From NCBI GenBank assembly GCA_028866595.1, contig JAGWHV010000001.1:1-50420 (forward strand): DNA of 50,420 nucleotides, read 5' to 3'. Below the pieces are notes generated by a model. The model searched no databases. It saw nothing but the letters and a program-made list of their open reading frames with translations, and was not told the origin of the DNA. This DNA comes from Patescibacteria group bacterium (lineage in GTDB: Bacteria; Patescibacteriota; Minisyncoccia; Phycocordibacterales; UBA6065). Position 1 is the first letter of the stretch. Each line of letters begins with the position of its first letter. Shown piece after piece: positions 1 to 26,981 of the stretch. The position numbers were made by a program, and so were the translations under genes.

Positions 1-2888
1 AGGAGCAGGAGATATTCCTCGCCGATTTCCCGCTCATGACCAATCACGGCACCTTCATCATAAACGGCATCGAACGCGTCATCGTACCCCAGCTGGCGCG
101 CTCGTTCGGCGTGTTCTTCACCTCTGACGAGCTCAAAGGCAAGACGGTCTTCGGCGCCAAGGTCATCCCTGCCCGCGGCGTCTGGCTCGAGATCGAGACC
201 GACACCGACGGCACGATATATGCTCGCATCGACAGGAAGCGCAAGTTCATGGTGACCGCTCTCCTCCGCGTCCTCGGCGCTGATACCGATGAAAAGATCC
301 TCGGCTACTTCAAAAACGACGAGGCCGCCAAAAAAGTCGTGGCCGCGTCTCTCGCCAAAGACACCGCCAAGACGATCTCTGACGCATATATAGAAATCCA
401 CAAACGCCTCCGCGATGGCGATCTCGCTACTGCCGATAACGCCAGGGATTTCATATCCAGCCTCTTCCATAAAGACCGGTACGACCTCTCGAACGTTGGC
501 CGTTTCCGCTTTAATAAGCGCTTTGGCAAGCCGATGACAGACAAAGAGCTCGAGAGGAAGACCATCGACGCCGACGATCTCGCCACGATCATAGGCAACA
601 TCATCCATCTCAACAATAAAGTCGACGCTGTCGAAGACGACATCGACCACCTTGGCAGCCGCCGCGTCCGGTACGTCGGCGAATTGATGCAGCAGAAGCT
701 CCGCGTCGGCCTTTCCCAGATGAAGCGCAACATCCAAGACAGGATGTCGACGATCGAGCCTGATACGACCCAGCCCTTGACGTTCGTGTCGCCGCGCCCT
801 CTCCAGGCTCGTCTCAAGGAATTCTTCACTACGAACCAGCTCTCGCAGTTCATGCAGCAGGAGAACATCCTTACCGAGCTCGAGCATCTCCGCACGCTCT
901 CGGCTCTCGGCCCGGGTGGCCTTACCCGCGAGCGCGCCGGCTTCGAAGTCCGCGACGTTCATCCGTCCCACTATGGCCGTCTCTGCCCGATCCACACCCC
1001 TGAAGGCCCGAACATCGGCCTCATTCTACGTCTGTCGACGTACGCCCGCCTCAACGATTTCGGCATGATCGAGACGCCGTATGCCAAGGTCAAGAACGGC
1101 AAGGTCACCAAGGAGATCATATATCTCAACGCTCTCGAGGAGGAAGGCTACCGCATCGCCCACGCCGCGACTTCGTATGACAAGTCGGGCGCCATCATCG
1201 AGGAATTCGCCGAGATCCGTCACAATGGCGGTCCTTCGATGGTTCGCCGCGAAGAAGTCGATTTCATAGACGTCTCGACGAATCAGGCGTTTTCGATCGC
1301 CACGAACATGATCCCATTCTTGAACCACGACGACGCCAACCGCGCGCTCATGGGTTCGAACATGCAGAAACAAGCCACACCGTGCATCATCCCTGAAGCG
1401 CCGCTCGTCGCGACCGGCATCGAGGCCAAAGCCGCCGAATACACCGGCCGTATCGTTCTCGCTCCCGAGGACGGCACGATCACAGGCGTCGACGCGAGCA
1501 AGGTCGTCTTCAAGAATCACAAAGGCAAAGAGACGACCTACAAGCTCGTCTCGTTCGAGAGGACGAACGGCTTTACCGCCTACCACCAGCGCCCTGTCGT
1601 CAATCTCGGTGACAAGGTCAAGAAAGGCCAGGTCCTTGTAGACGCTTCATCGTCCGACCAGGGCCAGATCGCTCTCGGTCAGAACATGCTCGTCGCTTTC
1701 ATGTCGTGGTCAGGCGCCAACTACGAAGACGCCATCATTCTGTCCGAGCGCGTCGTCAAGAATTCTAAATTCACCTCTATCCACATAGAGGAATTCGTGG
1801 TGAACGTCCGCGACACAAAGCTCGGCCCTGAAGTCACCACTCACGACATACCGAACGTCGGCGAAGGCAAGCTCAGGAACCTCGACGAAGACGGCATTAT
1901 CCGCATCGGCGCCGAGGTCCGTTCGGGCGACATCCTGGTCGGCAAGATTACGCCGAAGGGCGAGACCCAGCTCACGCCTGAAGAGCGCCTCCTCCGCTCG
2001 ATCTTCGGCGAGAAGGCCCGCGACGTCAAAGACACCTCTAAACGAATGGAAGGCGGCAAGCGCGGCCGCGTCATCTCCGTCAAAGTCTTCTCGCGCGAGA
2101 AAGGCGACAAGCTCGAGTCCGGCATCATCAAGCGCATCCACGTCGAAGTCGCTCAACTTCGTACCGTCTCCGTCGGCGACAAGCTCGCCGGCCGCCACGG
2201 CAACAAGGGCGTCATCTCTCGCATCCTTCCCGAGGAAGACATGCCGTACATGGCTGACGGAACGCCTATCGACGTCATCCTCACACCTCTCGGCGTGCCA
2301 TCCCGTATGAACCTCGGTCAGATTCTCGAACTCCACCTCGGCATGGCCGCGAATACTCTCAACTATCAGGCGATCGTGCCGCCATTCGCTGGTGCGACGG
2401 CGAACGAGATCAAGGCCGAGCTTAAAAAAGCGGGCTTGCCAGAGAACGGCAAGATCCCTCTCTACGACGGCCGCACCGGCGATAAATTCCAGCAGGACAT
2501 CTCTGTCGGCTACATGTACATCCTCAAACTGCATCACATGGTCGAAGACAAGATCCACATGCGCTCGATCGGTCCGTACTCTCTCATTACCCAACAGCCG
2601 CTCGGCGGCAAGGCTCAAGGCGGCGGCCAGCGCTTTGGCGAAATGGAAGTCTGGGCTCTCCTTGGTCACGGCGTCGCCCACACGCTCCGCGAGATCCTTA
2701 CCATCAAATCGGACGACATTCAGGGCCGCTCCGCCGCGTTCGATTCCATCGTCAAGGGCGAAAAGCTCCAACAGCCGAACATCCCGGCTTCGTTCCATGT
2801 GCTTCTGAATTCTCTCCGCGGCCTGGCCCTCGACGTCGAATTGCGCAAAGACGGCAAGGACATTAAAAGGACGAGCAAGACCGCTTAA
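1..2888 (+). CDS. rpoB: DNA-directed RNA polymerase subunit beta, 5' end truncated by window edge (codons in phase with position 3)
   Basis: The reading frame is open from position 3 (EQEIFLADFPLMTNHGTFIINGIERV...), so the gene starts upstream of the window. Classic beta-subunit motifs are present: GLTRERAGFEVRDVHPSHYGRLCPIHTPEGPNIGL, NMQKQA, GDKLAGRHGNKGVIS, GGQRFGEMEVWAL. Stop TAA at 2886-2888. rpoC follows 11 nt later. Confidence 0.97.
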   Translation, partial: EQEIFLADFPLMTNHGTFIINGIERVIVPQLARSFGVFFTSDELKGKTVFGAKVIPARGVWLEIETDTDGTIYARIDRKRKFMVTALLRVLGADTDEKILGYFKNDEAAKKVVAASLAKDTAKTISDAYIEIHKRLRDGDLATADNARDFISSLFHKDRYDLSNVGRFRFNKRFGKPMTDKELERKTIDADDLATIIGNIIHLNNKVDAVEDDIDHLGSRRVRYVGELMQQKLRVGLSQMKRNIQDRMSTIEPDTTQPLTFVSPRPLQARLKEFFTTNQLSQFMQQENILTELEHLRTLSALGPGGLTRERAGFEVRDVHPSHYGRLCPIHTPEGPNIGLILRLSTYARLNDFGMIETPYAKVKNGKVTKEIIYLNALEEEGYRIAHAATSYDKSGAIIEEFAEIRHNGGPSMVRREEVDFIDVSTNQAFSIATNMIPFLNHDDANRALMGSNMQKQATPCIIPEAPLVATGIEAKAAEYTGRIVLAPEDGTITGVDASKVVFKNHKGKETTYKLVSFERTNGFTAYHQRPVVNLGDKVKKGQVLVDASSSDQGQIALGQNMLVAFMSWSGANYEDAIILSERVVKNSKFTSIHIEEFVVNVRDTKLGPEVTTHDIPNVGEGKLRNLDEDGIIRIGAEVRSGDILVGKITPKGETQLTPEERLLRSIFGEKARDVKDTSKRMEGGKRGRVISVKVFSREKGDKLESGIIKRIHVEVAQLRTVSVGDKLAGRHGNKGVISRILPEEDMPYMADGTPIDVILTPLGVPSRMNLGQILELHLGMAANTLNYQAIVPPFAGATANEIKAELKKAGLPENGKIPLYDGRTGDKFQQDISVGYMYILKLHHMVEDKIHMRSIGPYSLITQQPLGGKAQGGGQRFGEMEVWALLGHGVAHTLREILTIKSDDIQGRSAAFDSIVKGEKLQQPNIPASFHVLLNSLRGLALDVELRKDGKDIKRTSKTA

Positions 2889-6751: not shown

Positions 6752-8491
6752 ATGAGCACTCACGTCCAGGAAATCAAAGACAAGCTCGATATAGTCCAGG
6801 TGGTGGGCTCGTACATAAAATTGGATAAGACCGGCGCGAATTACAAAGCTCGGTGTCCTTTTCACAACGAAAAGACGCCGTCATTCTTCGTCTCGCCGGA
6901 TCGGGGCACGTTCTATTGTTTCGGCTGCCAGGCTAAAGGCGACATATTCACGTTTGTAGAGAAATTCGAGGGTCTCGATTTCATGGGCGCTTTGAAAGTG
7001 CTCGCCGATAGGGCAGGGGTCAAGCTCGACCGGACCGCCGATAGGCACGACAACCGCAAAGAGCTCCTCTACGAGATTCTTGAAAAGGCGACCGCCTACT
7101 TTGAGGAACAGCTCGCTGCCGAGCCGCATGCGAAAACATATATCCTCGGCCGCGGACTCGCCGAAAAGACCCTCGATACTTTCCGAGTCGGCTATGCGCC
7201 GAATGATTGGCGGCGCCTCCGGACGTATCTCAAGGACAAAGGCTATCACGACGAGGATGTCGCCGCTGTCGGGCTTATCAAGAAGACGGACAAGCCCAGC
7301 GGCGATCCTTATTACGACGTCTTCCGCGGCAGGATCATGTTCCCGATAGCTGATTCGTCGGGCAGGGTAGTGGCATTCTCCGGCAGGATCGTCGAGGACG
7401 ACGGCACATCGCCGAAATACCTCAACAGCCCAGAGACCGCCCTCTATGTGAAGTCGAAGATCCTCTACGGTCTCGACAAAGCGAAATCGGACATCAGAAA
7501 GCGCGGCTATTCTATCCTCGTCGAAGGCCAGATGGACCTCGTCATGTCGCACCAGGCGGGCTTCAGCAACACCGTGGCCGCTTCCGGTACGGCTTTCACA
7601 GAGGACGATGGCGCCGATTCAGCATTCGGCCTCTTGACGCGTCTCTCCGACAATATCGTCCTTGCGTTCGACTCTGACTCGGCGGGGCAGAAGGCCATAA
7701 AACGCATCGGCCCAGCCCTCGCTCTCGGCATGAACGTCAAAGTCGTCGATATCAAGGGCGGCAAAGATCCAGCTGATATCATCAAAGCCGATCCAAAAGA
7801 ATGGGCCAAAGCTCTCGAGACGAAAAAGGATTTCATCGATTATCTCGTGGACGCCATCGTCGACTCGAAAGCTCCGCCGGCGGTCATTGCCAAAGAGGTC
7901 AAGCAGAACCTTTTTCCATACGTCGCTGCTATTCCCGAGGACACGCCGCGTTTCCAGGCGATAAAGAAGATCGCCGAGAGGCTCTCGATCAGCGAAGACG
8001 CTCTTTGGAAGGATCTGCAGACATTCGTCAAAGCGAATCCGTCGAGATCGGCCGCCGCATCGGCCGCGGCCGATGCGGCGGACAAGCCAGCCCGCCTCGA
8101 CCGCCTTGAATCGATCGAGCGCAAGATCCTCGGACTCTTGCGCTCCAAGCGGTATTTCGGCGATGACGAGGCCAAAGAGAAAGAGTTGGTAGCGATCATA
8201 GGCGCCGACAGATCGAAAGCATTTGAAGCTCTGCCCCCGGACGACGTGGCCGCTCTGACGCTCGAGGCCGAGATCACCTACGGCGACATGCCCCCGCCGG
8301 CCGCTAACAAAGAATGGCGGATCCTCCTCTTGAATCTCGAGGAAGAATATGCCAAGCGCCGGCTCTCGGCGATGATGGTCGATCTCCACAAGGCGGAGAA
8401 AGCGAACGCCGATACGGCGCACCTTATACAGGATATCCACGTACTAACGAAGAGGATACAGGAAGTAAAAGATTTGGCGGAAAAAGCTTGA
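6752..8491 (+). CDS. dnaG: DNA primase
   Basis: CHC2 zinc finger CPFHNEKTPSFFVSPDRGTFYCFGCQAKGD. TOPRIM motifs ILVEGQMDLV and AFDSDSAGQKA. It sits directly upstream of rpoD, as in the macromolecular synthesis operon. Confidence 0.95.
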   Translation: MSTHVQEIKDKLDIVQVVGSYIKLDKTGANYKARCPFHNEKTPSFFVSPDRGTFYCFGCQAKGDIFTFVEKFEGLDFMGALKVLADRAGVKLDRTADRHDNRKELLYEILEKATAYFEEQLAAEPHAKTYILGRGLAEKTLDTFRVGYAPNDWRRLRTYLKDKGYHDEDVAAVGLIKKTDKPSGDPYYDVFRGRIMFPIADSSGRVVAFSGRIVEDDGTSPKYLNSPETALYVKSKILYGLDKAKSDIRKRGYSILVEGQMDLVMSHQAGFSNTVAASGTAFTEDDGADSAFGLLTRLSDNIVLAFDSDSAGQKAIKRIGPALALGMNVKVVDIKGGKDPADIIKADPKEWAKALETKKDFIDYLVDAIVDSKAPPAVIAKEVKQNLFPYVAAIPEDTPRFQAIKKIAERLSISEDALWKDLQTFVKANPSRSAAASAAADAADKPARLDRLESIERKILGLLRSKRYFGDDEAKEKELVAIIGADRSKAFEALPPDDVAALTLEAEITYGDMPPPAANKEWRILLLNLEEEYAKRRLSAMMVDLHKAEKANADTAHLIQDIHVLTKRIQEVKDLAEKA

Positions 8492-10820: not shown

Positions 10821-12786
<1,966 letters not shown>

Positions 12787-12807
12787 AGGACGCCGCAAAA
12801 TAAAAAA

Positions 12808-12838
12808 CCATTCCCTAGGAGGGAACGGCTTCGTTTTT
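12808..12838. terminator. bidirectional hairpin terminator between tgt and the convergent 250-aa gene
   Basis: Stem CCATTCCCT/AGGGAACGG has one mismatch. It is followed by CTTCGTTTTT on the + strand and preceded by AAAAAA (a U-tract for the - strand). It overlaps the stop codon of the minus-strand gene. Confidence 0.5.
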
Positions 12839-13567
12839 GATGCCGAGGATGCGGCAGACGACCGCTAGATCGTCTTCGGCTGTGCCGAGCTCGCGGATGG
12901 TCTTCTCCTCCTGATCCGATCGGGCCTCGAGATCCCGGAGGGCTTTGCGGGCTTCTTCCAGGAGGAGCTCCATCTCGCGTATGTCCGAGCGCACCCTGTC
13001 CATATCGGCCTGAAGCTGGCCGTGGAGCATCCGGGCGATTTTTGCCCGCTCGGCCTTTGCCTTGAGATCGGACAAGCGCCCGTCGAGGCCGTCGCCCTCC
13101 CGCGGAATGGACCGCGGCTCCTCAGACGCTGCGGCCTCGATGGGCTGATCCGCCGACGTCGGCTCGGGCGGGAAGAGGATGACATTCTCCTCATGGCCCG
13201 TACTCGTAGCCTCGGCCTCTTGGCGATAGTGGCCGCCGGCGAAGCGGGAGAAGCAAAGCTCGAGGAGCTGGTTGGCGCGCAAGCCGCCGCCGCTCAAGAA
13301 GCATTCGAATCTCGTGCTATTATCGCCGTACTGGACGTTCATCTTGACGCCGTGCGCGGAGATCGCATGACGGACCTCGACGCCGAGGTGATGCCGTCCG
13401 CCGCTCTGGATCTTCTGGGTGATGACAAGGGTGAAGTCACCGGCGAGGCCAAGGGATGTGAGCATGTCTCGGACATAGCTCACGACCTCCGGCTTGTCGG
13501 TGACCGCGCCTTTGTTGGTTATGGTTAAGGGCGTTTCCGCCTTTAACGCATTTTGCATATTTTGCAT
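12815..13567 (-). CDS. hypothetical protein, N-terminal globular domain plus C-terminal coiled coil (250 aa)
   Basis: Host-like C-ending codon usage. The C-terminal heptad-like charged region reads LSDLKAKAERAKIARMLHGQLQADMDRVRSDIREMELLLEEARKALRDLEARSDQEEKTIRELG. I recognise no family. It has its own promoter (next feature). Confidence 0.65.
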   Translation of the reverse strand: MQNMQNALKAETPLTITNKGAVTDKPEVVSYVRDMLTSLGLAGDFTLVITQKIQSGGRHHLGVEVRHAISAHGVKMNVQYGDNSTRFECFLSGGGLRANQLLELCFSRFAGGHYRQEAEATSTGHEENVILFPPEPTSADQPIEAAASEEPRSIPREGDGLDGRLSDLKAKAERAKIARMLHGQLQADMDRVRSDIREMELLLEEARKALRDLEARSDQEEKTIRELGTAEDDLAVVCRILGIKNEAVPS

Positions 13568-13596
13568 TTTGGGATGTGGGGTTCGGTTTGATTTGC

Positions 13597-13625
13597 ATCC
13601 TACGGTTGATAACTATTGCTGTCAA
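13597..13625 (-). promoter_or_regulatory. sigma-70-type promoter for the 250-aa minus-strand gene
   Basis: On the minus strand there is a perfect -35 TTGACA (13625-13620), a 17-nt spacer and a -10 TAGGAT (13602-13597), about 30 nt upstream of the ATG at 13567. Confidence 0.45.
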
Positions 13626-13674
13626 TAGGATCATCTAGGCTCTTTGTTGAGCCGCGGCAACTGTTGTTCATACG

Positions 13675-13759
13675 TTATCCACGATTTATCCACCGGATAT
13701 CCACGAAAAATCATCCGGATATGGTTCGTTTTTCTTTACAAATCCACAGGTGTGGATAA
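13675..13759. promoter_or_regulatory. cluster of five DnaA-box-like 9-mers in a low-GC divergent intergenic region
   Basis: TTATCCACG (13675-13683), TTATCCACC (13686-13694), ATATCCACG (13697-13705), AAATCCACA (13740-13748), and TGTGGATAA (13751-13759, a perfect reverse-strand TTATCCACA). The last two form the palindrome ATCCACAggTGTGGAT. Confidence 0.6.
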
Positions 13760-13762
13760 AAT
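13735..13762 (+). promoter_or_regulatory. sigma-70-type promoter whose spacer is occupied by the palindromic DnaA-box pair
   Basis: -35 TTTACA (13735-13740), 16-nt spacer, -10 TAAAAT (13757-13762). The spacer contains AAATCCACAGGTGTGGA. Confidence 0.45.
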
Positions 13763-13835
13763 AGGTGCAGAAGGAGATAGCTCCTTAAACAATTTCCAGC
13801 TTCTTCCGGTAAAAACCAAACCAGAAGGAGTAAAA

Positions 13836-13925
13836 ATGCACACGAACGAAAACGGAATGGAGAGGTCGCCTCTCCTGATCGGCCCTTGGCCGCCCAGGAG
13901 TTGGTCGTCCACCGCTTTGGCCTAA
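13836..13925 (+). CDS. candidate 29-aa mini-ORF / leader peptide (MHTNENGMERSPLLIGPWPPRSWSSTALA)
   Basis: A strong Shine-Dalgarno GAAGGAG (13824-13830) lies 5 nt before the ATG. An upstream segment CTTCTTCCGG (13800-13809) can pair with CCAGAAGGAG (13821-13830) and sequester it. There is no homology evidence. Confidence 0.3.
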   Translation: MHTNENGMERSPLLIGPWPPRSWSSTALA

Positions 13926-14113
13926 AAGCCGTCGCGGAACACCTGTGATGATAGGTCCGGTTGTCCGGTTAGCCCGGATGGACTAGAGATCGCCCTTATT
14001 CCAGTCTGAAGGGCGGGGGGCTCGACCTCCACGAAATCAGACATCGTCATAACCTTTTCGTTCTTGCACAGGGACTTCGGTCCCGGGGGTCCTTGCCACG
14101 CGCGAGGACCCCT
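13859..14113 (+). other. GC-rich multi-hairpin region between the mini-ORF start and the next gene (candidate structured RNA / leader)
   Basis: Hairpins readable by eye: GGAGAGG-tcg-CCTCTCC (13859-13875); CGCCCTT...AAGGGCG (about 13991-14017); GGGAC-TTCG-GTCCC with a UUCG tetraloop (about 14071-14085); GGGGTCCT...AGGACCCC (about 14087-14113). I could not match it to any RNA family known to me. Confidence 0.3.
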
Positions 14114-14185
14114 TAATTGTTTTATGGACGTAGTACCAGTACGCCGGCACATCAGCTGGCGCTTTCAACCTTGCACAGGAGAGAC

Positions 14186-14422
14186 ATGAAGGAATGGCTG
14201 ATCCTTTACGGAGGAGGAGTATCGCATGGCGTCGTATACAAAGACAAGCTATATCGAAAGCCGTATGACATCCACGCTGCTAGAAACGGCGATGTTGGGT
14301 ACATTTTTCGGCGGCACACCGAGATACAGCTCAGGTTCGATTCCGAGCATCAGGCTTGGTACGAGACGAGAGAAGATCTCAAGAGATACATGTCCGAGCT
14401 GGTAGGCGCTCTTAGGTCTTAA
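14186..14422 (+). CDS. hypothetical protein (78 aa)
   Basis: RBS AGGAGA lies 3 nt before the ATG at 14186. An intrinsic terminator follows directly. Codon usage (AGA, AGG, CTA, GTA) differs from the surrounding housekeeping genes. Confidence 0.5.
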   Translation: MKEWLILYGGGVSHGVVYKDKLYRKPYDIHAARNGDVGYIFRRHTEIQLRFDSEHQAWYETREDLKRYMSELVGALRS

Positions 14423-14426
14423 AGCA

Positions 14427-14455
14427 GGCCCTCCTGACCAACGGAGGGCTTTTCT
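14427..14455 (+). terminator. intrinsic terminator
   Basis: Stem GCCCTCC (14428-14434) / GGAGGGC (14443-14449), followed by TTTTCT. Confidence 0.65.
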
Positions 14456-14472
14456 ATGGGGTAATGCTGTCC

Positions 14473-14652
14473 TTGCCAAATATTTTTGTTGTTGTAGTAT
14501 ATAACCATAATGCAGCGCTATTACGCACAGCTTACCCACTTTAAGCCCGTCCTTTGGAACGAAGTTCGAAGGCCGAGTTGTGGTTTTGTGCGATAGCTAT
14601 CATCTCTCACGAAACTAGAACCGGGCCCTCGAACAAGGCCCGGTGTTCTTTT
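14473..14652 (+). ncRNA. candidate small RNA or cis-regulatory leader bounded by a promoter and an intrinsic terminator
   Basis: -35 TTGCCA (14473-14478), 16-nt spacer, TAGTAT (14495-14500). About 120 nt of non-coding-looking sequence follows. The terminator is ACCGGGCC/GGCCCGGT (14620-14644) plus GTTCTTTT. The next ATG with coding character is at 14695. Confidence 0.3.
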
Positions 14653-14694
14653 GTCAGATCGTCCGAACCTCAAAACCAAAAAACGAAAGGTAGT

Positions 14695-15054
14695 ATGCAT
14701 CCGTCGATACTGGAGATCCATCGCACGCAGCAGAGCCGTCCCTGGGATATCCTGCTCTGGTCCAAGGACAAGGGATTCCTTGTCTCAAAAATGGAGAAGG
14801 TCGATGGCCGCTGGGCTGGAGGGGTCGCTCTCTCCCACGGTATGACTGCCTGGGCCGTCACCCTCGGCCGCGAAAACAAGCCGCGGCTCATGGTCAAGTT
14901 CGACGAAGTCGAGGGCGACTTCGTCTTTCCTGAAGTCTTCCGGATGCGGAAAGCGGACCGCCGCCAAGCGCGTCTCGCCCGGCGAGAGGAGCGCAAGATC
15001 GAGATCGACCGTATCTGGCGTGGACGTTGCGAGACCCAAGCCCGCTCTGTCTAG
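14695..15054 (+). CDS. hypothetical protein (119 aa)
   Basis: The in-frame ATG lies downstream of the terminator hairpin; the longer ORF from 14554 would run through that hairpin. It has coding-like codon usage and an Arg-rich C-terminus. The stop lies in the loop of a terminator. Confidence 0.5.
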   Translation: MHPSILEIHRTQQSRPWDILLWSKDKGFLVSKMEKVDGRWAGGVALSHGMTAWAVTLGRENKPRLMVKFDEVEGDFVFPEVFRMRKADRRQARLARREERKIEIDRIWRGRCETQARSV

Positions 15055-15067
15055 TGCGGGCTTTTTT
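15040..15067 (+). terminator. intrinsic terminator
   Basis: Stem GCCCGC (15040-15045) / GCGGGC (15056-15061), followed by TTTTTT. Confidence 0.7.
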
Positions 15068-15113
15068 ATACCCGGCATCCGCGATATAGTGTAGGCGCAC
15101 GCGCGGCGTGCTC

Positions 15114-15122
15114 TGCTATCGT
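15114..15122 (+). promoter_or_regulatory. extended -10-like box TGcTATCGT upstream of uvrB
   Basis: It lies 7 nt upstream of the ATG at 15130. The hexamer is weak. Confidence 0.3.
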
Positions 15123-15129
15123 GCCAGAC

Positions 15130-17205
15130 ATGTCTGAATTCAAAGTCAATAACCGGTTCGAACCGGCCGGCGATCAGCCGAAAGCGATCGACGCCCTCGT
15201 CAAAGGCGTCCGTAAAGGCATGCGCCACCAGACGCTCCTTGGCGTGACTGGCTCCGGCAAGACGTTTACGGCCGCGAATATCGTCGCCGCCATAGGCAAA
15301 CCGACGCTCGTCATCGCCCATAACAAGACGCTCGCCGCCCAGCTCGCCCAGGAATATCGCGAGTTCTTCCCGAACAACGCCGTCCACTACTTCGTCTCGT
15401 ATTACGATTTCTATCAACCCGAGGCATATATGCCGGTGACGGACACATATATAGAGAAAGAAGCGATGATAAACGAAGAGATCGAGCGCTTGCGCCATGC
15501 CTCGACCCAGGCCCTTCTCACGAGGAAAGACGTCATCATCGTCGCTTCCGTCTCCTGCATTTATGGCCTCGGCTCGCCAGTCGAATACGAAAAGGTCAAT
15601 ATGAAAGTCACGACCGGCATGAAAGCCGACAGAGCCGAGCTCATCCGCCGGATGACAAGCATCCATTTCGAGAGGACAAATGCCGACCTCGAGCCGGGCA
15701 TGCTCCGGGCGGTAGGGAATATGATCGAAGTCATGCCTGTGAATGAGAAAGTCATATATCGCATCGCTTTCGAGACGGACAAAGACGGTGCGAGCCGCGT
15801 CAGTCGCATCGATCAGATAGATGCGATCACAAGGGCGATCGTCAAACCGCTTGATGTCTTCTTTCTTTTCCCGGCGAAGCATTTCATCACGGACAAAGAG
15901 CAGGTCGAGCGTGCTTTCACGACGATCAAAGCCGAGCTCGAAGCCAGGCTCAAAGAGCTCGCGGCGCAAGGCAAGACGCTCGAGGCGGAGCGCCTCAAGC
16001 GTCGCACGAATTACGACCTCGCCCTCATCCGCGAAGTTGGCTATTGCAACGGCATAGAGAATTACTCGCGCCATTTCTCCGGCAAGGCTCCGGGCGAGCC
16101 GCCTGACACATTACTCTCGTACTTTCCGCACAAAGCCGACGGCAGCCCGGATTTTCTCACCATCATCGACGAGTCGCACGTCACCATCCCGCAATTGAAC
16201 GGCATGTACGCCGGCGACCAGAGCCGCAAAAAGACGCTCGTCGAGCACGGCTTCCGCTTGCCGAGCGCCTGCGACAATCGGCCGCTCACATTCGAGGAAT
16301 TCGAGACTCGCGTAGGTCAGGCTATATATACTTCGGCGACGCCGGGCGATTTCGAGCGAGCTCATAGCATTCCACCCGAAGGCCAGATCGCCGAGCAAGT
16401 CATCCGCCCGACAGGGCTTCTCGATCCGATCGTCGAGGTTAAGCCCGTCACTGAAAAGCGAGGCGCCGCGGGAGCGGTCTACCCAGGCCAGATCATCGAC
16501 TCGATCGCCGAAGCCGAAAAGGTCGTGGCGAAAGGCTTTCGCGCTATCCTCACCACTTTGACCAAAAAGATGGCCGAAGACCTCGTCGATTACCTCAAAG
16601 AGCGCTCGGTCAAAGCCGAATACCTCCACAGCGATATAAAGACGATCGATCGCATCACTATCCTCACCGATTTCCGCCGCGGCAAATTCGACGTCCTCGT
16701 TGGCGTCAATCTCCTGCGCGAAGGCCTCGACCTGCCGGAGGTCGCCTTTATCGGCATCCTCGACGCCGATAAAGAAGGGTTTCTTCGGTCGGAGACATCT
16801 CTTATCCAGATCATCGGCCGAGCGGCGCGCAACGTCGAAGGCCGAGTCGTCATATACGCCGATACGATGACCGGCTCGATCGAGCGAGCTATTCGCGAGA
16901 CTAACCGCCGGCGAGCTATTCAGGAAGCGTATAACAAGAAGCACGGCATCACCCCGAAGACCATCATCAAGGCGATCAAAGACATCACCGACCAGCTAGA
17001 GAGCGAGCATGACAAGACCGTCAAAGAACAAGTCCGCATAGACGAAGAACTCTTCGCCAAGGATCCGAAAGCGCTTATCAAGAAAAAAGAGGCTGATATG
17101 AGCGAGGCCGTCAAGATCCTTGATTTCGAGACGGCTGCTATCCTTCGCGACGAGATTCAGGCTCTGTATGACAAGCTCGAAGGCCTCCGCTCGAAAAAGC
17201 GATAG
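15130..17205 (+). CDS. uvrB: excinuclease ABC subunit B
   Basis: N-terminus MSEFKVNNRFEPAGDQPKAI, Walker A GVTGSGKTFT, DESH box, and a C-terminal UVR motif ILDFETAAILRDEIQAL. The ORF track's upstream GTG at 15121 is a possible alternative start. Confidence 0.95.
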   Translation: MSEFKVNNRFEPAGDQPKAIDALVKGVRKGMRHQTLLGVTGSGKTFTAANIVAAIGKPTLVIAHNKTLAAQLAQEYREFFPNNAVHYFVSYYDFYQPEAYMPVTDTYIEKEAMINEEIERLRHASTQALLTRKDVIIVASVSCIYGLGSPVEYEKVNMKVTTGMKADRAELIRRMTSIHFERTNADLEPGMLRAVGNMIEVMPVNEKVIYRIAFETDKDGASRVSRIDQIDAITRAIVKPLDVFFLFPAKHFITDKEQVERAFTTIKAELEARLKELAAQGKTLEAERLKRRTNYDLALIREVGYCNGIENYSRHFSGKAPGEPPDTLLSYFPHKADGSPDFLTIIDESHVTIPQLNGMYAGDQSRKKTLVEHGFRLPSACDNRPLTFEEFETRVGQAIYTSATPGDFERAHSIPPEGQIAEQVIRPTGLLDPIVEVKPVTEKRGAAGAVYPGQIIDSIAEAEKVVAKGFRAILTTLTKKMAEDLVDYLKERSVKAEYLHSDIKTIDRITILTDFRRGKFDVLVGVNLLREGLDLPEVAFIGILDADKEGFLRSETSLIQIIGRAARNVEGRVVIYADTMTGSIERAIRETNRRRAIQEAYNKKHGITPKTIIKAIKDITDQLESEHDKTVKEQVRIDEELFAKDPKALIKKKEADMSEAVKILDFETAAILRDEIQALYDKLEGLRSKKR

Positions 17206-17226: not shown

Positions 17227-17610
17227 ATGACAAATCTTCAGGGTAAAAAAGTAGTCTGGGTCGAGGATGACAAATACCTCGTTTCTCTCATAAGCGAGCG
17301 AATGGCTGAAACAGGAGCGAAGCTCGTCGTTGTGAGCGACAGCCTCAAGGCTCATGACACCGTCAAGACCGAAATGCCCGATATCGTCGTCCTCGACCTC
17401 CTCATGAAGTATCTCGACGGCTTCGAGGTCTTGAAACAGCTCAAAGCTGATCCATCGACGAAAGCGATCCCTGTCTTTGTCCTCTCGAATCTCGGCCAGG
17501 AGCAGGAGATCGAACGGGCCAAAGAGCTCGGCGCCGCGAAATTCGTCGTCAAGGCATCTATCGGCCTCGATGGCATCATCCCTGAAATAGGGAAGGTGAT
17601 AGCAAAGTAG
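17227..17610 (+). CDS. single-domain response regulator (CheY-like receiver only)
   Basis: Acidic pocket VEDD, phospho-acceptor context IVVLDLLM, PVFVLSN, and KFVVKA (conserved Lys). It has no output domain. Confidence 0.88.
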   Translation: MTNLQGKKVVWVEDDKYLVSLISERMAETGAKLVVVSDSLKAHDTVKTEMPDIVVLDLLMKYLDGFEVLKQLKADPSTKAIPVFVLSNLGQEQEIERAKELGAAKFVVKASIGLDGIIPEIGKVIAK

Positions 17611-23336: not shown

Positions 23337-23338
23337 AG

Positions 23339-23411
23339 TGGACCGTACAGGATTCGAACCTGCGACCCCCTGCTTGCAAAGCAGGTGCTCTACCAACTGA
23401 GCTAACGGCCC
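23339..23411 (-). tRNA. tRNA-Ala (anticodon UGC), CCA not encoded
   Basis: Reverse complement: GGGCCGT TA GCTC AGTTGGTA GAGC A CCTGC TTTGCAA GCAGG GGGTC GCAGG TTCGAAT CCTGT ACGGTCC A. It is 73 nt, has the G3:U70 alanine identity pair, and the anticodon loop centre is TGC. Confidence 0.93.
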
Positions 23412-26631: not shown

Positions 26632-26702
26632 GGGCCTATAGTATATCGGTAATACGCATCCATGGCATGGATGAGTGTCGGGTTCGACTCCCGATAGGTC
26701 CA
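26632..26702 (+). tRNA. tRNA-Ala (anticodon GGC), CCA not encoded
   Basis: GGGCCTA TA GTAT ATCGGTA ATAC G CATCC ATGGCAT GGATG AGTG TCGGG TTCGACT CCCGA TAGGTCC A. It is 71 nt with a G3:U70 pair. Confidence 0.9.
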
Positions 26703-26714
26703 CAAGGAGGACTT

Positions 26715-26788
26715 GCACCCTTAGCTCAGTCGGCTAGAGCGTTCCCTTCACACGGGAGAGGCCACACGTTCGAATCGTGTAGGGTGCA
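26715..26788 (+). tRNA. tRNA-Val (anticodon CAC), CCA not encoded
   Basis: GCACCCT TA GCTC AGTCGGCTA GAGC G TTCCC TTCACAC GGGAG AGGCC ACACG TTCGAAT CGTGT AGGGTGC A. It is 74 nt. Confidence 0.9.
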
Positions 26789-26796
26789 CACGGGAA

Positions 26797-26830
26797 GAGG
26801 CCGCGCGGCGCTCTGCGCCGCCGCGGCCTC
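26797..26830. repeat. GC-rich palindromic hairpin, copy 1 (core CGCGGCGCTCTGCGCCGC)
   Basis: GAGGCCGCGCGGCGC-tct-GCGCCGCCGCGGCCTC forms a 15-bp stem with one bulge. The 18-nt core is identical to the one at 27781-27798. Confidence 0.8.
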
Positions 26831-26841
26831 GGTCCCGAGAC

Positions 26842-26912
26842 GGGCCTATAGTCTAGTGGTACGACGCGTCATTCGCATTGACGAGGCGGGGGTTCGATTC
26901 CCCCTAGGTCCA
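26842..26912 (+). tRNA. tRNA-Ala (anticodon CGC), CCA not encoded
   Basis: GGGCCTA TA GTCT AGTGGTA CGAC G CGTCA TTCGCAT TGACG AGGC GGGGG TTCGATT CCCCC TAGGTCC A. It is 71 nt with a G3:U70 pair and one D-stem mismatch. Confidence 0.88.
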
Positions 26913-26981
26913 CATCAAGGATTGTGCACATATAGCGGTTTACAGGTATAGATCGGCGTTCTATACTCGTCTTGGCCCCTG

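Follow-up and report, generated by a model that had tools for sequence, protein, structure and literature searches.

A phased cluster of DnaA-box-type sequences on a predicted chromosomal promoter between tgt and uvrB in a Paceibacterota bacterium

A cluster of five DnaA-box-type sequences lies between the genes tgt and uvrB in a 50,420-nucleotide stretch of DNA from a Patescibacteria group bacterium (GenBank assembly GCA_028866595.1, contig JAGWHV010000001.1, positions 1 to 50,420), referred to here as the window. The cluster (13675 to 13759) sits on a predicted promoter, and it is read here as a non-origin group of DnaA boxes belonging to a promoter of the chromosome, one that would be controlled, and probably repressed, by DnaA; comparison of sequences makes this reading moderately probable. 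Clusters of DnaA boxes on promoters are well known in Escherichia coli, Bacillus, Caulobacter and Pseudomonas, and the general kind of element is already known; what is new is its setting in a phylum of the candidate phyla radiation (CPR) and its conserved phased architecture. CPR bacteria have tiny genomes and few regulators, and to our knowledge neither the control of replication initiation nor its coupling to gene expression has been established among them. A literature search found no paper on DnaA boxes in CPR or Patescibacteria.

The first three boxes are head-to-tail direct repeats on the plus strand with a strict 11-bp period, that is, with 2-bp gaps, a regularity that had escaped an earlier, sequence-only reading of this DNA. 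Box 1 (13675-13683, TTATCCACG) and box 2 (13686-13694, TTATCCACC) have one mismatch each and box 3 (13697-13705, ATATCCACG) has two; box 2 lies within the 19-mer TATCCACCGGATATCCACG, and the array can also be read as two 22-nt units (repeat family D1). A fourth position of the lattice (13708-13716, plus strand, AAATCATCC) has decayed to five mismatches. The other two boxes form an opposed pair, in which box 4 (13740-13748, plus strand, AAATCCACA) has two mismatches and box 5 (13751-13759, TGTGGATAA) is a perfect TTATCCACA on the minus strand, the sole perfect copy in the window. All five 9-mers were found within 85 bp where the sequence-only reading had placed them, as was the palindrome ATCCACAGGTGTGGAT that the last two compose in the 16-nt spacer between TTTACA (13735-13740) and TAAAAT (13757-13762). 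The GC content, which had been estimated to be lower here than in the flanking genes, is 41.8% in the intergenic region (13568-13835) and 38.8% in the cluster, as against 56.1% for the window.

This cluster is non-random, far beyond chance. In first-order Markov simulations, five boxes with at most two mismatches fell within 85 bp in 0 of 200 runs at the composition of the window, and in 2 of 200 when the whole 50 kb was given the composition of the AT-rich intergenic DNA. Under either composition, 0 of 200 runs produced three or more boxes with at most one mismatch. The observed mismatches are 0, 1, 1, 2 and 2, a density far above background that includes a perfect TTATCCACA. Boxes with at most one mismatch number 11 in the window where 4.4 are expected, and three of the 11 fall inside these 85 bp; likewise, all three of the window's copies of the 8-mer TTATCCAC fall in the cluster region. 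No 85-bp span with five boxes was found in 1.96 Mb of related CPR DNA, and together with the simulations this speaks against such densities being common by chance.

The cluster both overlaps and adjoins a predicted promoter. This rightward promoter, P(+), is a sigma-70 type sequence on the plus strand (13735-13762; TTTACA, 16 nt, TAAAAT) with 10 of 12 consensus matches and a transcription start site predicted near 13769. Boxes 4 and 5 lie in its spacer and −10 region, where box 5 extends over the first 3 nt of the −10 hexamer, and boxes 1 to 3 lie 30 to 60 bp 5′ of the −35 hexamer. As two boxes occupy the spacer and the −10 region, it is reasonable to predict from the sequence that DnaA would repress the rightward transcript. 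A divergent promoter, P(−), is predicted on the minus strand (13597-13625; TTGACA at 13625-13620, 17 nt, TAGGAT), where it serves an orphan 247-aa gene.

Related genomes retain the array. The window is a stretch of Paceibacterota (CPR) chromosome, its locus is identical in GCA_028871755.1, and its nearest relatives are metagenome-assembled genomes of Candidatus Paceibacterota with 72-78% TGT identity. The sequence-only reading had proposed a comparison with related genomes, and this finds the array at the homologous position in two of them. In L002 (SMAG_U3078) the units TTAACCACA, CTATCCACT, TTATCCCCG and ATATCCCCG follow one another at 10-, 11- and 11-bp spacing right after the tgt stop codon, with a predicted promoter 3′ of them (TTTACT, 17 nt, TAGAAT). 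In L082 (SMAG_U7448; L359 is the same sequence) a weaker copy consists of CTTCCCACA, TTATCCACT and TTTTCCCCG at 11-bp spacing, again followed by a predicted promoter (TTTACA, 17 nt, TATCAT). The three arrays align base for base, so that box 1 corresponds to TTAACCACA and CTTCCCACA and the decayed fourth position to ATATCCCCG in L002, while that position is deleted in L082; the TATCCAC of the middle unit is invariant. When 2.0 Mb of CPR DNA linked to tgt was scanned blind for phased triple arrays with at most five mismatches in total, only two came up, those of the window and of L002, in homologous places.

The spacing between array and promoter is kept as well. The middle box ends 40, 40 and 50 nt before the −35 hexamer in the three genomes, and since the difference of 40 and 50 nt amounts to one helical turn, the array keeps its helical face. 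Downstream of the array all three genomes carry a Pro/Gly-rich short open reading frame (sORF; 23-32 aa), a terminator and then an open reading frame (ORF) of the orf78 family (71-87 aa). The three upstream boxes had earlier been tied to the divergent leftward promoter; as the relatives have no gene diverging from the array there and preserve the distance to the rightward promoter, the conserved partner of the array is P(+) instead.

Several other sites were seen in the course of these comparisons. The array is absent from the short contigs of the closest metagenome relatives, L099 (TGT identity 86%) and L084 (83%). Homology to the spacer operator was weighed for a palindrome in L003, ATATCCCCAAGGGGATAA, and set aside, as the palindrome has a different geometry and might be a terminator; a pair of phased boxes in L293 (Kaiserbacteria), only two in number and before an unrelated gene, is compatible with chance. 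Further clusters of three boxes with at most one mismatch, away from dnaA, occur in Paceibacterota-related DNA, namely in L070 (733-807, for example TTATCCACTTATCCACAGGTGG...AAGTGGATAACG, and 8027-8118), L016 (19766-19828), L049 (7490-7613) and L133 (4101-4187).

What binds such an array is suggested by where identical units occur elsewhere. The pattern TATCCAC-N4-TATCCAC-N4-TATCCAC was searched in a collection of species-representative genomes, and strict triple arrays were found in at least 120 genome stretches from many phyla, where about 0.3 would be expected by chance. The gene dnaA lies within about 1 kb of 46 of 120 strict arrays and at 4.2 kb from one more, and dnaN adjoins another five. 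The positions that the pattern leaves free recover the DnaA box, in that T stands at position 1 in 77-84% of units and A at position 9 in 47-83%, the rest there being mostly C. The array core TATCCACYGGWTWTCCMCG, conserved in the Paceibacterota arrays, has 114 matching stretches; its CCAC variant is within 1.5 kb of dnaA in 30 of 69 cases, and its CCCC variant is adjacent to dnaA in 3 of 45, one of which is the exact 19-mer of L002, 38 bp from the dnaA of Sulfobacillus. Because identical phased units recur in linkage with dnaA (about 40% within about 1 kb), DnaA is likely the binder of the window array in this organism, and the repeats themselves are, by their sequence, genuine DnaA-box-type elements.

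The same units were met in other settings. The exact 19-mer of the window, TATCCACCGGATATCCACG, lies 0.2-1.9 kb from dnaA in many genomes of Actinoplanes and other Micromonosporaceae (L284, L286, L292, L325, L337, L339, L340, L350, L362 and others), and in L286, L350 and L362 it is within the first 8 kb of complete Actinoplanes chromosomes. Within the CPR, the oriC of L164 (Berkelbacteria) has the same phased canonical boxes by dnaA, after which come a GC cluster and an AT-rich stretch of TAC/TAG repeats, and its DnaA has a conserved domain IV. In Dependentiae/Babeliales (TM6), long phased TTATCCACCAC arrays of up to six or more units stand beside nusA at 17 loci (among them L180, L181, L186, L190, L198, L201, L210, L211, L213, L223, L237, L247, L251 and L253), with a UDG-family gene on the other side in 10 of the 17 and no dnaA in the fetched stretch. 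Either the replication origin of that phylum or a conserved locus under DnaA control might lie at this nusA array.

The main rival to DnaA is a different transcription factor encoded elsewhere, either a winged-helix regulator of the OmpR/PhoB type or a lineage-specific one, for which the array would be an operator and the likeness to DnaA boxes a coincidence. This is possible but unlikely, and it draws chiefly on the relatives, in which the units drift to TCCCC (in L002 and L082, TTATCCCC or TTTTCCCC) without loss of the periodicity, as would fit a co-evolving factor better than a conserved DnaA. The location of the array at −60 to −95 from the promoter and its 10-11-bp phasing are those of OmpR/PhoB direct repeats, and the surrounding ORFs evolve fast. 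On the other hand, the agreement of window units with the DnaA consensus extends past the shared core (8/9, 8/9 and 9/9, the last being the only perfect 9-mer in these 50 kb), identical 19-mers are linked to dnaA in unrelated phyla, and the motif occurs as both direct and inverted repeats, as would suit a protein, such as DnaA, that recognises boxes one by one. The flanking ORFs show no detectable DNA-binding domain, and the only response regulator nearby (17227-17610) is receiver-only, without an output domain, so that a cognate winged-helix regulator is missing from the neighborhood of a motif that is itself a DnaA box.

Among known systems, the intergenic DnaA-box clusters of Bacillus subtilis offer the closest comparison. 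Such clusters, at yqeG-sda, ywlC-ywlB and yydA-yycS among other places, regulate sda, which DnaA activates, and ywlC and yydA, which it represses (Ishikawa et al. 2007, PMC2533591). They have 4-8 boxes with at most one mismatch each and are conserved among related genera, and the yqeG-sda cluster, with five boxes over 85 bp, controls the gene of a very small protein (PMC2533591). The window likewise has dense intergenic boxes of the TTATCCACA type that adjoin promoters, and it shares with yqeG-sda the figure of five boxes in 85 bp. It differs in that the regulated genes are unrelated, that only the window locus has boxes phased strictly head-to-tail at 11 bp and an opposed pair in the spacer, and that the host is an uncultivated CPR bacterium with predicted DnaA sites.

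A second comparison is with DnaA-regulated promoters. In E. coli these include dnaA, mioC, rpoH, uvrB and proS (PMC2533591), and in Pseudomonas aeruginosa the DnaA boxes 5′ of the gidA promoter, at gidA/oriCII, regulate transcription (PMC13438810). As in those promoters, a box in the window overlaps or adjoins the core promoter, and the locus also happens to be 5′ of uvrB; unlike them, it faces an sORF operon particular to the lineage as its target. Three terminators intervene between the site and uvrB, which makes it unlikely that this gene is controlled directly.

Some observations weigh against a DnaA-repressed promoter. Only three boxes in the cluster have at most one mismatch to TTATNCACA, fewer than the four or more of the B. 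subtilis clusters. When the window genome is set beside L002 and L082, the opposed spacer pair is found in the window genome only, so that it is the array, not the pair, that is conserved, and repression need not be part of the conserved role. The drift of the relatives' units to TCCCC takes them off the strict consensus TT[A/T]TNCACA, and a diverging factor particular to the lineage would account for it just as well. Neither dnaA nor dnaN is present in the 50-kb window, and dnaA is also absent from the first 81 fetched loci (L001-L081), the ±10-kb flanks of the closest relatives included. The promoters are consensus-based predictions, and we infer the binding of DnaA in this organism, the activity of the promoter and the sign of regulation.

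With these reservations, a mechanism for the DnaA-controlled promoter can be proposed. The centres of boxes 1 to 3 fall at about −90, −79 and −68 relative to the predicted start site, with the geometry of DnaA head-to-tail oligomers. DnaA would nucleate on the strongest boxes and oligomerise head-to-tail along the 11-bp array, and the opposed pair at about −25 and −14, with the perfect box over the −10 hexamer, would place bound DnaA where it occludes RNA polymerase; the upstream array would raise the local occupancy of DnaA cooperatively. Transcription of the sORF, the leader and orf78 would then go down when DnaA is abundant and active, and up when it is depleted or titrated. As the relatives lack the spacer boxes and have the upstream array only, their array may activate or fine-tune rather than repress; activation, modulation or fine-tuning might then be the ancestral role, with hard repression a lineage-specific addition.

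A different view would have the cluster act mainly on DnaA itself, as a site of titration or of nucleotide-state control similar to datA or DARS, with effects on transcription being secondary. This is decidedly improbable. The cluster is dense, lies away from dnaA and combines a head-to-tail array with an opposed pair and one perfect box, and about 40% of the phased arrays elsewhere adjoin none of dnaA, dnaN and the Dependentiae nusA locus. A datA-type locus pairs its box cluster with an IHF site that promotes hydrolysis of DnaA-ATP, and a DARS stimulates DnaA to release ADP. In a DARS core, boxes I and II are opposed and 5 bp apart, box II is a perfect consensus, and box III is head-to-tail beside box II (PMC6868365). 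DARS1 and DARS2 of E. coli thus resemble the window site in having an opposed pair with one perfect box, same-direction boxes nearby and a non-origin chromosomal location. The geometry is nevertheless different, as the opposed boxes of the window are 2 bp apart, the array is 34 bp away, and an adjacent box III is missing; furthermore, the pair is embedded in a promoter and is absent from the relatives, while the array keeps its helical phase to the promoter, which points to transcriptional coupling.

It is very improbable that the site is an oriC distant from dnaA, or the fossil of one, although such phased arrays are linked to dnaA or dnaN in about 42% of the sampled genomes, the local GC is lower than in the flanks, and a cluster of DnaA boxes is what an oriC would have. 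Head-to-tail arrays of low-affinity DnaA boxes at the oriC of E. coli have 2-bp gaps and an 11-bp period. In these arrays (R1 to I2 and R4 to C3) DnaA self-associates head-to-tail on boxes of the same direction (PMC6868365). The window array resembles them in its same-direction phased boxes, and identical phased arrays elsewhere concentrate beside dnaA, yet it faces a promoter and not a DNA unwinding element, and it is without a switch in strand or skew. In the 50-kb view, the plus strand holds 90% of the coding sequence on the left side of the site and 97% on the right, with no switch in strand bias; the GC skew at third codon positions is negative on both sides (−0.30 and −0.20), and the cumulative skew is monotonic, without a turning point. 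An origin here would put rpoBC, dnaG and rpoD head-on to the leftward fork. Nor is there an unwinding element, the lowest GC of any 40-mer being 32.5% as against 20-27% at other intergenic spots of the window, and no run of at least four matching trinucleotides in five consecutive ones was found in a search for DnaA-trios. The GC cluster and the AT-rich trinucleotide-repeat stretch of the L164 oriC are missing, linkage to dnaA or dnaN (typical of an oriC, though not obligatory) is lacking in the window and in L001-L081, and the site is taken up by two predicted promoters. With coding-strand bias, skew, AT-richness and DnaA-trios all negative, the origin that had been entertained for this site finds no backing, and the site is most likely not an oriC.

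The sequence-only reading had also offered a relic of a mobile replicon as an alternative. On such a view the array would be iterons, and the inverted repeat an operator, left by an integrated plasmid or phage. Direct repeats followed by an inverted repeat over a promoter are the classic layout of Rep autoregulation, and the window has direct repeats (two 22-nt units) and, 3′ of them and across the promoter, the same motif as an inverted repeat, as well as an adjacent orphan gene. In contrast to plasmid Rep systems, no rep, integrase, partition or phage gene was found in Pfam, PHROG and NCBIfam scans of the flanking ORFs, no tRNA flanks the site, and a megablast search of the locus against plasmids gave no match. 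Three genera carry the module in synteny, in the tgt-uvrB gap of the chromosome; the repeated motif is itself a DnaA box, and the units of the relatives are simple 11-bp repeats. A relic of this kind is thus exceedingly improbable.

The predicted P(+) transcript (13769-14122, plus strand) is highly structured and ends with a terminator hairpin (14085-14113) and a T-run. Its folding z-score is −5.1 and that of the minus strand −5.3; being similar on both strands, the score by itself is no proof of an RNA element, and the direction of the leader is taken from the promoter, the sORF and the terminator. A search of 13500-15200 against Rfam gave no match at the gathering thresholds or at E ≤ 10. 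The sORF (13836-13925, plus strand; 29 aa, MHTNENGMERSPLLIGPWPPRSWSSTALA) is preceded by an AAGGAG Shine-Dalgarno sequence and is matched by an in-frame 32-aa counterpart in L002 and a Pro/Gly-rich one of 23 aa in L082. Between the window and L002, 11 of its codons are identical, 7 differ synonymously and 8 non-synonymously. Gly-Pro motifs (IGPWPP, IGPRPPVIGPRPP and FGPKPNFGPKK) mark the sORF in the window (13836-13925), in L002 (11375-11473) and in L082 (1523-1594), and, speculatively, its position ahead of a terminator and of a small ORF might let it govern read-through as a stalling leader peptide.

The small protein orf78 (14186-14422, plus strand) follows, with its own terminator (14424-14456) and with homologues after the equivalent leader in L002 (29% identity) and L082. 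A word-index search found no homologues of orf78, a genome profile scan recovered that of L002 only, and the AlphaFold model is unusable (pLDDT 49). A second promoter (14473-14500) is followed by a conserved leader and orf119 (14695-15054), which ends with a terminator and has only 10 representatives among 1.8 billion proteins. Just downstream of the predicted start of the second promoter, two weak box-like 9-mers 11 bp apart (TTACGCACA and TTACCCACT, two mismatches each, at 14521-14540) were noticed; the relatives keep only their CAC core, and the pair is probably not a DnaA site.

The non-coding leader 5′ of the orf119 family is conserved in six genomes, at 14560-14660 in the window and elsewhere in L002 (12105-12265), L082 (2945-3110), L083 (7545-7720), L004 (11290-11425) and L084 (1020-1165). 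RNAalifold gives it a helix of 24 pairs with compensatory changes at six of them, and it has no Rfam match. The 3′ arm of this helix overlaps the 5′ arm of the conserved terminator hairpin, a layout of antiterminator and terminator, and the leader is a candidate for a new riboswitch-like or attenuator element.

The gene order of the window is rpoB, rpoC, dnaG, rpoD, an FKBP gene (minus strand), a LOG-family gene, tgt, the 2.3-kb gap, uvrB, the receiver-only response regulator, uvrA, uvrC and ddl onwards, nearly all genes being on the plus strand. This order is kept across the phylum, whereas the length of the tgt-uvrB gap ranges from 0 to 3.1 kb. In the window the gap contains, in order, the divergent orphan hyp250/247, the box cluster with P(−) and P(+), the sORF, the structured stretch with its terminator, orf78, the second promoter, the leader and orf119. 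The earlier phrase "orphan genes of this island" holds only for the 247-aa gene, as the module is syntenic in the tgt-uvrB gap of two other Paceibacterota genera. Searches of Pfam, PHROGs and NCBIfam gave nothing credible for the ORFs of the gap or for their counterparts in the relatives.

The orphan itself (12815-13558, minus strand) is outside the conserved module and is predicted to have an alpha/beta N-domain, a disordered linker and a long helix. A homologue search returned only the protein itself, and a metagenome scan returned nothing; a relation to HPF/YfiA was set aside and is not used for function, the fold matches being weak (best E = 5e-3, none ≤ 1e-3). A 9-nt tandem duplication at the start of the gene (13548-13571; ATGCAAAAT twice on the minus strand, encoding MQNMQN) accounts for the alternative start calls of 250 or 247 aa. 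A gene that evolves very fast occupies every tgt-uvrB gap examined and encodes, in similar arrangement, a small alpha/beta N-domain, then a linker of low complexity and finally a long helix at the C-terminus. Its place within the gap varies by genome: it is at 12815-13558 (minus) in the window, where the copy has no detectable homologue and its fold matches to HPF/YfiA are weak, at 13124-14326 (minus) in L002, at 11293-12159 and 12289-12921 (minus) in L003, and at about 2170-2830 (minus) in L082. The tRNA genes of the window are ordinary and unrelated to the site; Ala(GGC), Val(CAC) and Ala(CGC) are clustered at 26632-26913, and Ala(UGC) is on the minus strand at 23338-23411.

A more far-reaching idea, rather doubtful and offered tentatively, is that the conserved array and its operon might be a sensor of replication status, in which a DnaA filament gates a checkpoint-like small protein comparable to Sda, or else a controller of DnaA in the manner of datA and DARS. 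Apart from that idea, a conserved promoter array far from dnaA makes the role of DnaA as a transcription factor in the CPR directly testable, and the small lineage-specific operon that it faces is a candidate link between the cell cycle and the physiology of these bacteria.

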